Assembly (NCBI RefSeq): GCF_004570865.1
Contig: NZ_SPQS01000041.1
Coordinates: forward strand, 1 to 24,000
Source: Bradyrhizobium frederickii
Lineage (GTDB): Bacteria; Pseudomonadota; Alphaproteobacteria; Rhizobiales; Xanthobacteraceae
Length of the DNA stretch: 24,000 nucleotides
Direction: 5' to 3'
Made by a program: the position numbers and the translations under genes. The notes beneath the pieces were generated by a model. That model was given only the letters and a program-made list of their open reading frames with translations, searched no databases and was not told the DNA's origin. Of this stretch, positions 5,218 through 8,337 are shown piece after piece (positions within the stretch are counted from its first letter, which is position 1; every line of letters begins with the position of its first letter).

Positions 5218-6009
5218 ATGTCGATCACGATAACTCATAGCGCCAAGTCTGCCGCTGAGGACCGTACTCAGCCGTTGGGGAATTTCAAACTTGCAGCAGG
5301 AGTCACTCTGGCGGTGCTAGCGCTGATGGTGTTCTGGCGCATCTTTCAGCAGGTCTATGCTTGGAGTGCCGGCCTGGATTCGACTGAGCCCGCGTTCGAT
5401 GCCGCCTGGATGACGTTGCTGAAGGTTGAGCTTAGCGTCATCCCTTTGCTCTGGGTGGTGACCTGGGCGTATCTATGGTTCACGCGAGACCGCAATCTTG
5501 GCGCGCTCAAACCGCGGGAAGAGCTCCGGCGCTACTTCAATCTGGTCCTGTTCAACTTCGTCTATGCCTTTTGCGTCTGGTTCGCTACCAGCTTCTTTGC
5601 CGAGCAGGACGCCTCATGGCATCAGGTTGTGGTCCGGGATACAAGCTTCACGCCAAGTCACATCGTGCTGTTCTACGGCACCATGCCACTCTACGTGCTG
5701 TTTGGCGTGGGATCATTTCTGTACGCGATGACGAGGCTGCCGAAGTTCGCAACGCAGATCTCAATTCCATTCGTGCTCGCGGTTGTAGGTCCGTTTCTAA
5801 TATTGCCGAACTTGGGCTACAACGAGTGGGGTCATGCCTTCTTCCTGATGGAAGAGGTGTTCTCCTATCCCTTGCACTGGGGTTTTGTCGTGATGGGCTG
5901 GAGTGTGCTGGCCTTGGGTGGGCTCCTGATCCAGATCGCGATGCACATGCTTGAAGTGATCGGGCGGCTTTCTCAAGAGGACCAAGCTTCGGTCGCCACC
6001 CAGCGCTGA
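5218..6009 (+). CDS. pmoC: Copper membrane monooxygenase subunit C (PmoC/AmoC family)
   Basis: An AGGAGGAG Shine-Dalgarno precedes the ATG at 5218. The protein is polytopic. Hallmark blocks are [25 protein letters not shown] and [23 protein letters not shown]. Metal ligands D131/H135/H148 and N202/H206/H220 have exactly the spacing of the M. capsulatus PmoC ligands. Confidence 0.95.
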   Translation: [263 protein letters not shown]

Positions 6010-6129
6010 AACCGCTTATGAACCATTAATCGCGGACAGCCCGGCATGCAAAGCTGCCGTCTTGTAATCAGTCGGGCGTCGGCTTCCAGGAAGGTCGATC
6101 TCAACTCGGTAAAGAATTAGGAGGAAGCC

Positions 6130-6987
6130 ATGCAAGGAGGAACGTCTGTGAGACTGTATGGCCTCGAATGGCCTAAAGAGTCAGCAAGAATCTCAAGAGT
6201 GTTTGACCTTCTCGTCGCCGCTATCCTTTTTCTGGCCGTCTCCGGCGCATTCCACCTGCATTACATGCTGACCGCAGGGGACTGGGATATGTGGATCGAT
6301 TGGAAAGACAGACAGTGGTGGGTCACCCTGACTCCAATTATGGCCATAACATTCCCTGCAGCTTTGCAGTATGTGTTTTGGACGAAATTTAGACTTCCAA
6401 TCGCCGCTACATTTGCGGTCGTTTGTCTTCTGTTCGGTCAGTGGATAAATCGATATTTCGGTTTCCACCTGTGGTCGTACTTTCCGATGAGCGAGGTCAT
6501 TCCAGCGCTGCTGATACCTGGCGCACTAGTCCTCGATGTCGCTCTTTTGCTGACCGGGAATTTTCTGTTCACGGCGATGTCCGGCGCCTTTGCATTCGCA
6601 CTGCTTTTCTACCCGACTAACTGGTTTTGGCTGGCGCCATATCGGCTACCCGTAGAAGTGATGGGGCAGCTTGTTTCCGTGGGCGATTACATCAGCTATG
6701 CATTCACCCGCACCGCGCTGCCTGAGTATATCCGGCTGATAGAGCGGGGCACGCTTCGAACTTTTGGTGGCCACTCAGCCATTATCGCGTCCTTTTTCTC
6801 GGCGTTCGTATCCATACTGATGTATTTGGCGTGGTGGCATATCGGAATGCTCCTCGCTCGTGTGGTAACGACGCCAAACGCCCTGAAGCATTTCATGGGG
6901 CTCACCGATAAGGATGAGCCAGCTGAGGCAGCCCAAAAAGCGATAGACGGTACCAGCCTGCAAGGGCGCTCCGTCGCAGCCGAATGA
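6130..6987 (+). CDS. pmoA: Copper membrane monooxygenase subunit A (PmoA/AmoA family)
   Basis: A TAGGAGGA Shine-Dalgarno precedes the ATG at 6130. Hallmark blocks are [40 protein letters not shown] and [20 protein letters not shown]. There is a C-terminal extension of about 35 aa compared with the PmoA sequences I remember. Confidence 0.95.
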   Translation: [285 protein letters not shown]

Positions 6988-7014
6988 TTCTGCTGGGACT
7001 GTGGAGGACTCCAA

Positions 7015-8337
7015 ATGAGAACATTCTGTTTCCACGAAAGCTCATGCGTGCGTGTAGTCTTATCGGCAGCGGCGGCGATCATGCAGATCGGAATACTGAT
7101 CTTCGTCCCAGATGCTGCTCTGGCGCATGGTGAGCGTAATCAGGAGCCGTTTCTGCGGATGCGAACGGCTCATTTTTACGATGTGAAGTGGAGCACGAAC
7201 GAAACTCCCGTGAACGGTGAAATCGTTGTCACCGGCAAGTTCCGACTCTTCCCGATCTGGCCAGTCAACCTACCCCTTCCCGAAGCGGCCTTTCTGGGAA
7301 ACGGGACGCCGGGCCCGGTGCTAGCCCGAACCGAGAGCTACATTAATGGCGTCCCTGCAATTCAGTCCACCAAACTGGAGTTGAACCGGGACTATGAATT
7401 CAAAACAGTGCTCAAAGGACGAGTGCCAGGCCACCATCACGTCCATCCGATGATCAACGTGATGGGAGCCGGGCCGCTGCTCGGACCGGGAAACTGGCTG
7501 ACGGTGACGGGGAACGAAAGCGACTTCAAGCTTTCAATCAAAACTCTCAGTGGCGAGACTATCGACAATCTCGAAACCTGGGGCCTTGGCAGGGTGTTCT
7601 TCTGGCATGGCTTGTGGGTTGCGATCGCCATCGTGTGGCTTGTCTGGTGGTTGCGCCGGCCGCTCCTGCTGCCTCGTTTTCGCGCGTTGACGGAAAAAGG
7701 CGGCGATCGATCTCAGCTCGTTACCAGCACCGATCGCCTATTCGGGGCCGGTTTGCTCGTGGCGACGATTCTCATCGTATTCTTCGGCTTTCAGGCGACC
7801 GACACCGCTTATCCAAGGACGGTGCCGCTGCAAGGGTCCCGCGCAACCGTCGAGCCCCTACCGGAAGTGCCTGAGCAGGTCAAAGTTGCGGTCAACAAGT
7901 CAAACTATGACGTCCCTGGCCGCTCGCTTCGTATGAACGTGACACTGACGAACAATGGGAGCTCGTCAGCACAGCTTGGCGAGCTCTTAACTTCCAATCA
8001 GCGCTTCATCAACCATGAGGTTAGCCAGGCAATGGCGACGGTGGATCCGAATTACCCCAAGGAATTGCTTCCTCCGAATGGGCTAAAGGTGAGCGACAGC
8101 CGACCGCTCAAGCCGGGTGAAACGAAGACAGTCGATATCGAAGCGGCCGACGCGGCATGGGAGACGGAGCGCTTGAGTAGCCTGATCAACGATCCGGACA
8201 ACACGTTGGGAGGACTGTTGTTCTTCTATGACGAGCACGGCAAGCGGACAATCTCAAACGTCAGCGGCCCCATGGTCCCTGTATTCACCGATCCCGACAA
8301 CCGCACGGCTGAGAATCCGACAGGAGGTGCGGGTTGA
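7015..8337 (+). CDS. pmoB: Copper membrane monooxygenase subunit B (PmoB/AmoB family)
   Basis: A GGAGGA Shine-Dalgarno lies upstream. The signal peptide ends ALA|[46 protein letters not shown] contains the H-x-H copper ligands. There are two internal TM helices ([19 protein letters not shown] and [18 protein letters not shown]) and a C-terminal cupredoxin-like half. Confidence 0.95.
   Translation: [440 protein letters not shown]

Follow-up and report, generated by a model that had tools for sequence, protein, structure and literature searches.

A mobile copper membrane monooxygenase module of Bradyrhizobium and the substrates it may oxidise

Which substrate would a copper membrane monooxygenase (CuMMO) oxidise in Bradyrhizobium, and by what route did the enzyme reach this genus? 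The question is raised by the operon xmoCAB on contig NZ_SPQS01000041.1 of the Bradyrhizobium frederickii assembly GCF_004570865.1, of which we analysed positions 1 to 24,000 of the forward strand (the whole of this 24,000-nucleotide stretch is referred to as the window). We found that xmoCAB encodes a complete CuMMO with all of its copper ligands, that it is followed by four genes with a probable role in copper handling, and that the resulting seven-gene module is cargo of conjugative elements that spread recently among Bradyrhizobium species. With respect to the substrate, the reading that we favour, with little more than even confidence, is a CuMMO for short-chain (C2-C4) alkanes or alkenes with a dedicated copper-supply set, for which small oxygenates are also possible substrates.

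It should be noted that earlier work had reported the existence, though not the function, of a Bradyrhizobium CuMMO. An earlier note, made from the sequence of the window alone, had suggested that the operon might be one of the orphan CuMMO operons of Bradyrhizobium; the host is indeed Bradyrhizobium, and Khadka et al. 2018 (PMC6215863) name Bradyrhizobium sp. ERR11 as one of the genomes whose CuMMOs have no assigned function, and leave these undiscussed. This passing mention was the only one found in a literature search on the function of Bradyrhizobium CuMMOs. A gas-seep stable isotope probing paper concerns actinobacterial CuMMOs, which do not belong to the clade of the window, and a desert-methanotroph paper that includes Bradyrhizobium deals with B12 cross-feeding, not with a CuMMO. 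New here are the full seven-gene module, the mobile cassette and its spread, the otherwise uncultured clade to which the enzyme belongs and whose other members have hydrocarbon-type gene contexts, and the finding that the "AmoA" annotation of this enzyme is uninformative.

The seven-gene module

Three consecutive plus-strand genes encode the CuMMO subunits C, A and B (Table 1), as the earlier note had proposed; all the peptide blocks that it quoted were found at the corresponding open reading frames (ORFs), and each of the three proteins scores above the cut-offs of its NCBIfam family. Alignment to solved chains, combined with a residue script, places H38/H142/H144 of XmoB at the CuB ligands H33/H137/H139 of Methylococcus capsulatus, D131/H135/H148 of XmoC at the CuC ligands D156/H160/H173, and N202/H206/H220 of XmoC at the CuD ligands N227/H231/H245, the latter with an offset of 25 and without gaps. 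The spacing of the CuB, CuC and CuD ligands is thus identical to that of the M. capsulatus Bath particulate methane monooxygenase (pMMO; PDB 1yew, 3rgb, 7ev9), with which the window also shares the C-A-B order. All nine ligand columns align in MAFFT alignments and are invariant across 55 XmoCAB sets, which bears out the earlier statement that every metal ligand is present at identical spacing. The signal peptide of XmoB ends in ALA, and its predicted cleavage leaves H38 as the N-terminal residue. Therefore, the window holds a complete CuMMO operon in C-A-B order with intact ligands, and chance resemblance is ruled out. The bis-His site of M. capsulatus PmoB, which is not generally conserved, is half kept: H53 is present, whereas the equivalent of H72 is R77. 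In betaproteobacterial ammonia-oxidising bacteria (beta-AOB), position 53 is Gln and position 77 is His.

Table 1. Features of the window. Positions count from its first letter; aa, amino acids; IS, insertion sequence.
Feature	Position	Strand	Description
xmoC, CuMMO subunit C	5218..6009	+	263 aa; Pfam AmoC E 1e-93, profile positions 3-243 of 245
xmoA, CuMMO subunit A	6130..6987	+	285 aa; Pfam AMO E 2e-94, positions 4-232 of 238
xmoB, CuMMO subunit B	7015..8337	+	440 aa; Pfam Monooxygenase_B E 7.5e-141, positions 1-380 of 380
PmoD/AmoD homologue	8334..8900	+	188 aa; phmmer match to PDB 6CPD (PmoD), E 9e-19
copC, periplasmic Cu-binding protein	8945..9472	+	175 aa; Pfam CopC E 5e-22, positions 1-92 of 92
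CopD-cytochrome c fusion	9482..11473	+	663 aa; Pfam CopD, Cytochrom_C, Cytochrome_CBB3
His/Met-rich secreted protein, last module gene	11463..12029	+	188 aa, or 170 aa from ATG at 11517
Whole mobile module, xmoCAB-pmoD-copC-copD/cytochrome c-His-rich ORF	5096..12093	+	7 kb, shared among species
Conserved leader, left module border	5096..5217	+	122 bp; strong ribosome-binding site AGGAGGAGACAAGATG
Truncated 5' (left) end of IS3-family element	4587..4733	+	orfA ATG at 4675 (MSRRARRNHTPAFKAKVALAT); nrdAB/xmo junction
nrdA, class I ribonucleotide reductase	1640-3640		
nrdB, class I ribonucleotide reductase	576-1658		
Cobalamin riboswitch	3684-3897	-	Rfam RF00174, 127.6 bits, full model
Polysaccharide deacetylase	12875-13762	-	Pfam Polysacc_deac_1 E 5e-26
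Phage-integrase fragment	~15070-15234		
DUF3892 gene	~17986-18276	-	
Fic/DOC protein	21339-22877	+	512 aa; full-length match to PADLOC candidate defence family PDC-S24, E 2.5e-208

The core of XmoA is ~52% identical to M. capsulatus PmoA, in agreement with an earlier estimate, made by eye, of about half. The C-terminal extension of about 35 aa that had been ascribed to this protein exists relative to PmoA (~34 aa), but it is not a distinguishing trait, because the AmoA of beta-AOB is only ~10 aa shorter. The nearest relatives, too, have such a tail, about as long and with a conserved PN..K..MG motif, and the RTFGGH motif of XmoA is common to ammonia monooxygenase (AMO) and to these relatives. 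As the earlier note had observed, no methanol- or hydroxylamine-oxidation genes occur within the 24-kb window.

The unit of 5218-8337 that the note had delimited is right for the CAB genes but not for its end, since four further co-oriented genes follow position 8337. The first of them encodes a PmoD/AmoD homologue, which starts with a TTG overlapping the xmoB stop codon and whose C39/M47/H49 align with the Cys-Met-His (Cys-x7-Met-x-His) motif of 6CPD. This motif reportedly forms a CuA site in PmoD. The translation comprises an N-terminal signal peptide, a periplasmic domain and a C-terminal transmembrane helix; public gene calls put the start at M34, and the signal peptide is then lost. The next product, CopC, has the predicted mature N-terminus HAALVKSDP and scores 83 bits against NCBIfam copper_CopC, under the cut-off of 95 bits. 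It is followed by a fusion of a CopD membrane copper importer with a c-type cytochrome (haem motif CADCH) and a thioredoxin-fold-like C-terminal domain, in which region a relative has a weak AhpC-TSA match. Fusions of this kind (640-710 aa) also lie 3' of amoCAB-ED-copC in Nitrosomonadaceae, and are 32-37% identical to that of the window over ~700 aa. The last gene encodes a protein with a His/Met-rich N-terminus, AQHHEPGTHHMHG. Conservation of this protein is 93-96% throughout the Bradyrhizobium copies and 45% in a single alphaproteobacterial metagenome-assembled genome (MAG), where its gene adjoins copCD (L020). It matches no Pfam or NCBIfam family, and a search of 5.8 billion proteins gave only its own cluster; we infer that it handles periplasmic metal.

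Relatives of the enzyme and the substrate that they suggest

Outside Bradyrhizobium, the best XmoA matches among the 5.8 billion proteins are metagenomic and 70-71% identical. In a collection of 185,579 species genomes, MAGs come closest, with an XmoA identity of 61-68% (Rhodocyclales, HGW-Betaproteobacteria-11, freshwater/groundwater Gammaproteobacteria including ones from Lake Baikal, and a Hyphomicrobium-labelled bin), followed by Nitrosomonadaceae at 51-54%. Within this collection, Bradyrhizobium provides the only cultured isolates in the resulting clade of 18 sequences, which otherwise consists of MAGs. Together with MFD04944 and the Logan contigs P0002 and P0003, these relatives have XmoA identities of 61-71% to the window, the long XmoA C-terminus and the same CAB-D-copC-copD(cytochrome c) layout, which is also that of Nitrosomonadaceae; PmoD homologues adjoin xmoB or amoB on the 3' side in both. 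Unlike the window, most of the MAG loci have an additional ORF between pmoD and copC, and some have neighbouring genes for alcohol dehydrogenase (ADH), aldehyde dehydrogenase (ALDH) and acetyl-CoA synthetase (ACS), for a MimR-type activator or for acyl-CoA metabolism. The His-rich terminal ORF of Bradyrhizobium, conversely, is its own.

The additional ORF is an observation in its own right: it is conserved, 270-310 aa long and without a Pfam family, and was seen in L008-L019, L029, L083 and L085, lying beyond copC on the opposite strand in L010/L014, and being present neither in the Bradyrhizobium cassette nor in the beta-AOB loci. Extra pmoD paralogues occur upstream of xmoC in L008 and L009.

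We compared concatenated XmoCAB sequences over 823 columns. Identity to the window was 63-68% for the MAG clade (13 uncultured MAG or metagenome sequences), 50-59% for Cycloclasticus-, UBA2780-, ET-HIRO-like and other emo-like sets, 46.5-48.7% for 25 beta-AOB sets, a range that also includes the Pxm-order locus, and 48.2% for M. capsulatus pMMO. The ranking is consistent, i.e., the MAG clade precedes the emo-like sets, and these precede AMO and pMMO. In neighbour-joining trees with 100 bootstraps, the Bradyrhizobium sequences unite in the concatenated alignment with a support of 100 and the 18-member clade with the MAGs with a support of 96, and a split that sets the 18-member clade together with the emo/Cycloclasticus-type groups apart from AMO, pMMO and the Pxm-order locus has a support of 98. 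Across this split, the 25 beta-AOB sets make up a clade of their own. A deep placement of the enzyme with emo/Cycloclasticus-type CuMMOs is probable rather than established. The earlier note had called the enzyme a divergent type, outside the characterised pmo and amo clades, and this holds, since an identity above 80-90% to such a clade, at which novelty would vanish, is clearly not reached. It should be noted that alphaproteobacterial pmoCAB references are represented by PDB matches only, and these score lower than M. capsulatus. Two named families were considered and rejected. Pxm has the gene order A-B-C, not C-A-B as found here, and the Pxm-order locus (L078) groups with pMMO; canonical pMMO (pmoCAB1/2) is only 52% (PmoA), 45% (PmoB) and 50% (PmoC) identical when M. 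capsulatus is taken as reference, and the window lies outside the pMMO/Pxm side of the split.

The emoCAB-type enzymes on the same side of the split belong to marine Gammaproteobacteria, namely the ethane oxidisers ET-HIRO and ET-SHO, the ethylene-assimilating Haliea ETY-M and Cycloclasticus (pHMO); physiological work has established what they oxidise (e.g., Khadka et al. 2018, PMC6215863). They also have a pmoD homologue 3' of xmoB, but, unlike the window, their operons lack copCD. Over the XmoA core, ET-HIRO is 62% identical to the window, Haliea ETY-M and ET-SHO are 56% identical, and Cycloclasticus is 55% identical.

The second line of evidence for a hydrocarbon substrate is in the gene neighbourhoods of the uncultured relatives. 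In locus L083 (alphaproteobacterial MAG MFD04944, XmoA 68%), genes for an aldehyde dehydrogenase, an acetyl-CoA synthetase, a Zn-dependent ADH and OmpW lie directly upstream of the operon, and an ALDH gene is also present at L029, the sister locus of L083. L093, the nearest relative (P0002, XmoA 70%), has a gene for EthD as well as a divergent, downstream gene for a sigma-54 activator that contains a MimR_N domain; in L095, an acyl-CoA dehydrogenase and an acetyl-CoA hydrolase/transferase are encoded 3' of copD; and L085, from a gammaproteobacterial MAG, has thiolase, cytochrome P450 and short-chain dehydrogenase/reductase genes. L093 also carries a sigma-54-type -24/-12 motif, CGGCACAAAGCTTGCA, at 735-750 (+), 115 nt upstream of xmoC; the site is suggestive by its position alone, and the Bradyrhizobium leader has no equivalent. 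Contig_30022 of MFD04944 is peculiar in that it carries two divergent xmoCAB operons (L021 and L083) ~24 kb apart, with an XmoA identity of 55% and 68% to the window, of which only the 68% operon has the ADH/ALDH/ACS/OmpW neighbours and copCD.

In the reading that we favour, the three Xmo subunits would form the membrane-bound (ABC)3 complex typical of the family, which would take O2 and membrane-derived electrons and hydroxylate or epoxidise a small hydrophobic substrate at its copper sites, i.e., CuB in XmoB, where signal-peptide cleavage would expose H38, and CuC/CuD in XmoC. The four downstream genes, presumably co-transcribed, would supply and insert copper through PmoD with its CuA-type Cys-Met-His motif, CopC, the CopD importer-cytochrome c and the His/Met-rich periplasmic protein. 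The physiological substrate would most likely be an alkane or alkene of the C2-C4 range, or else a small oxygenate related to these, for example acetone, and the product alcohol or epoxide would pass to dehydrogenases encoded elsewhere in the genome. With respect to acetone, an ISME J 2021 report describes its oxidation by a pMMO homologue. Dedicated oxidation of ammonia or methane appears less likely; the two compounds are likely to be co-oxidised by XmoCAB, but this is probably not its purpose.

Several observations weigh against this interpretation. In the trees, the deep split is weak when the subunits are analysed singly (bootstrap 9 for C, 42 for A and 74 for B), the emoCAB-type sets are not robustly united with the window by single subunits, an XmoA-only tree with named references is unresolved at depth, and the reference set contained no Nitrosococcus, comammox, actinobacterial or archaeal sequences. 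Outside Bradyrhizobium, all members of the 18-member clade are uncultured and none is characterised, and the closest beta- and gammaproteobacterial MAG loci, L008-L010, as well as L019, have only housekeeping-looking neighbours, as judged by the N-termini of the ORFs alone. The Bradyrhizobium cassette and its flanks have no adjoining alcohol or aldehyde dehydrogenase, CoA-ligase or regulator; a sigma-70/terminator scan and a sigma-54 pattern search found no convincing promoter upstream of xmoC, with nothing above chance; and the pairwise dN/dS values of the module ORFs (0.13-0.70, all below 1) are based on few substitutions. Finally, XmoA and XmoC find their closest solved structures in AMO, and the copCD synteny and the XmoA GGH motif are common to the module and beta-AOB. 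These AMO-like traits do not discriminate, however, because they are common to the whole MAG clade. The earlier note held that the substrate, be it methane, ammonia or a C2-C4 hydrocarbon, cannot be read from the sequence, and this stands, with the hydrocarbon as the substrate that we consider somewhat probable.

The same traits raise the possibility that the enzyme is a true AMO, which would convert NH3 to hydroxylamine in heterotrophic nitrification or in detoxification, possibly of ammonia from N2 fixation. The NCBIfam equivalog models AmoC_BACT, AmoA_BACT and AmoB_BACT all score above cut-off, the PDB chains matched best by XmoA and XmoC are those of AMO (9pxf, 9cl6, 9leg), the gene order is that of Nitrosomonadaceae down to the CopD-cytochrome c fusion, the RTFGGH motif of XmoA and the HHxH motif of XmoB are as in beta-AOB, and CuMMOs co-oxidise ammonia generally (Khadka et al. 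2018, PMC6215863). Conversely, beta-AOB AMO (Nitrosomonas/Nitrosospira amoCAB-amoED-copCD) is only 43-53% identical per subunit and ~48% identical in the concatenation, which is equal to the identity with pMMO, it is set apart by the split with support 98, and it has a pair of genes, amoE and amoD, where the window has a single PmoD-type gene. MAG relatives flanked by alcohol, aldehyde and acyl-CoA genes have the synteny and the GGH motif as well. Genes for hydroxylamine oxidoreductase (hao) and cytochromes c554/cM552 (cycAB) are absent both from the window (24 kb) and from the loci of its relatives (20 kb), although this is weak evidence, since these genes are unlinked to amo in AOB. In a study in which cycAB served to identify true ammonia oxidisers, the amoCAB of beta-AOB was derived from emo/pxm-type genes of non-methanotrophs (Mol Biol Evol 2024, PMC11135946). 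Taken together, we consider a true AMO unlikely.

The annotation of the protein does not change this estimate. The RefSeq name "bacterial ammonia monooxygenase AmoA" stems from NF041557 (AmoA_BACT), a model with a cut-off of 290 bits that scores M. capsulatus PmoA (401 bits) above one beta-AOB AmoA (365 bits), and that also passes, at 295-334 bits, the XmoA of the ethane oxidisers ET-HIRO and ET-SHO, of the ethylene-assimilating Haliea and of a Cycloclasticus MAG. Because the model ranks PmoA above AmoA and accepts hydrocarbon XmoA, it is not substrate-specific and the label carries no substrate information; we rejected it as functional evidence. RefSeq "AmoA" names on the genomes of non-nitrifiers are unreliable.

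A mobile cassette and the remaining readings

The XmoA of the window is an exact match to WP_126261872.1, which is labelled MULTISPECIES Bradyrhizobium, and its 90% cluster contains 25 sequences, including those of B. frederickii, B. niftali, B. cajani, B. forestalis, Ai1a-2, CIAT3101 and several USDA strains. One copy in the cluster is on a 374-kb plasmid, and no fewer than 15 RefSeq genomes have the operon in their annotation. The exact XmoA match, together with the identity of the contigs to Bradyrhizobium, excludes the Methylocystis- or Methylosinus-type host that the earlier note had kept open. Some cluster members are shorter (140, 223, 262 and 265 aa), of which at least the 223-aa one is a fragment at a contig end.

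B. niftali, B. uaiense, B. cajani and NAS96.2 carry the module at a DNA identity of 97-99%, and the homology is limited to 5096-12093 of the window. On the left side, alignments with five Bradyrhizobium species or strains begin only at ~5096, and the sequence upstream of this point is unrelated. The flanks of the module are unrelated among strains and contain relaxase/TraG, trbB-E, trbK-I, IS66 and IS3 genes. For example, a complete chromosome of B. niftali has relaxase/TraG upstream of the cassette and IS66/trb genes (trbB-E or trbK-L) downstream of it, whereas two draft assemblies with an identical XmoA have trbK-L-F-G-I, DUF2274 and a LysR gene upstream of xmoC instead of nrdAB. In those two drafts, nrdAB is on a separate contig of 4.4-4.9 kb, and one such contig (L086) runs into an IS: positions 2-4733 of the window are 100% identical to L086, which continues into an HTH_Tnp_1 transposase, and from 4733/11339 to 24000 the window matches contigs of Bradyrhizobium assemblies that carry xmo, at an identity of 99.98-100%. 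The IS3 remnant upstream of the module is cut exactly where the homology to the xmo contigs of other strains starts (4733), and its 147 bp also flank another IS copy (L088 17086-17232). Because of this truncated-IS junction and the separate nrdAB contig in two drafts, nrdAB is not a stable neighbour of xmo. The GC content is 0.53-0.58 across the cassette and 0.61-0.65 in the nrdAB segment. We found no terminal inverted or direct repeats bounding the module and no tRNA integration site in the window, and the operon had no megablast match among the plasmids of PLSDB. The low GC content and the flanks of conjugation genes and IS, which differ between strains, identify the module as cargo of conjugative elements of the integrative and conjugative element (ICE) type, recently spread among Bradyrhizobium species.

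In Bradyrhizobium sp. NAS96.2, two contigs (L005, L007) each carry xmoC-xmoA, with XmoA 96% and 99% identical to that of the window; the cassette appears to be duplicated in this genome.

Mobility raises a further alternative, in which the cassette is a silent or decaying hitch-hiker that lacks the regulator and the catabolic genes it once had, and that either is not expressed or fails to assemble. The module border lies 122 bp upstream of xmoC, with no recognisable promoter or regulator in between, the regulator and catabolic genes of the relatives are missing from the Bradyrhizobium cassette, IS elements and rearrangements abound around the module, pairwise dN/dS is in some cases rather high (0.6-0.7 for xmoC and copD), and the shorter cluster members could be read as decay. 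However, in all full-length copies that we inspected, from five or more species or strains, the seven ORFs are intact and free of frameshifts, none of the ligand residues is lost, no dN/dS value reaches 1, the set of seven genes, including those for copper handling, is retained as a unit across species, and NAS96.2 carries two copies. We therefore hold silent cargo to be improbable.

An ICE-borne CuMMO of nodulating Bradyrhizobium might also be a plant-interaction trait that oxidises a gas of the host or the rhizosphere, of which ethylene would be the most attractive, while ethane, isoprene-like volatiles or bacteroid ammonia may be considered as well. Ethylene is a hormone that restricts nodulation, and the hosts named in the XmoA protein cluster are largely legume-nodule isolates. 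A module without catabolic partners, in a family that includes the ethylene-assimilating Haliea, is compatible with such a trait; the XmoA identity to Haliea of only 56% and the lack of epoxide-handling genes in view weigh on it, and we regard it as quite improbable. If true, it would be a new rhizobial route to the manipulation of host signalling, alongside ACC (1-aminocyclopropane-1-carboxylate) deaminase and rhizobitoxine.

A divergent pMMO that converts methane to methanol, perhaps at trace level and followed by methanol dehydrogenases of the host, is very unlikely: the best solved-structure match of XmoB is M. capsulatus PmoB (395 bits vs 374 for AMO), H53 of XmoB corresponds to H48 of M. 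capsulatus, and many Bradyrhizobium encode XoxF-type methanol dehydrogenases, but per-subunit identity to M. capsulatus is 45-52% and concatenated identity 48%, the window falls on the other side of the split from pMMO and Pxm, TIGR03080 (methane/ammonia monooxygenase subunit A) scores XmoA at 296 against a cut-off of 318, the host is, unlike M. capsulatus, not a methanotroph, the window is devoid of methanol-oxidation genes, the neighbours of the relatives point to C2-or-larger metabolism, and the hosts of comparable novel proteobacterial CuMMOs in the work of Rochman et al. 2020 reportedly assimilated ethane and propane, not methane.

Neighbouring features and significance

Beyond the module, the window contains several further features (Table 1). 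The cobalamin riboswitch lies directly upstream of nrdA and nrdB, an arrangement that looks like B12-repressed expression of a B12-independent ribonucleotide reductase. The polysaccharide deacetylase gene downstream of the cassette is present in frederickii-type contigs and is outside the cross-species module. The rest of the segment 12100-24000 consists mostly of small ORFs without a family, together with the phage-integrase fragment and the DUF3892 gene. In matching contigs, a gene with a BstA_C domain follows ~1.2 kb beyond the Fic/DOC gene, at a position shortly after the end of the window.

As a family, CuMMOs power the oxidation of both methane and ammonia, and metagenomes repeatedly yield orphan lineages without an assigned substrate. 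Bradyrhizobium is genetically tractable, and it therefore offers a practical handle on the substrate of this lineage and on the contribution of PmoD and CopCD-cytochrome c. The RefSeq "AmoA" label is no evidence of nitrification by Bradyrhizobium, which matters for amoA/pmoA surveys of soil and rhizosphere metagenomes. A complete CuMMO that travels with copper-supply genes as 7 kb of conjugative cargo is a clear example of this family moving between lineages.

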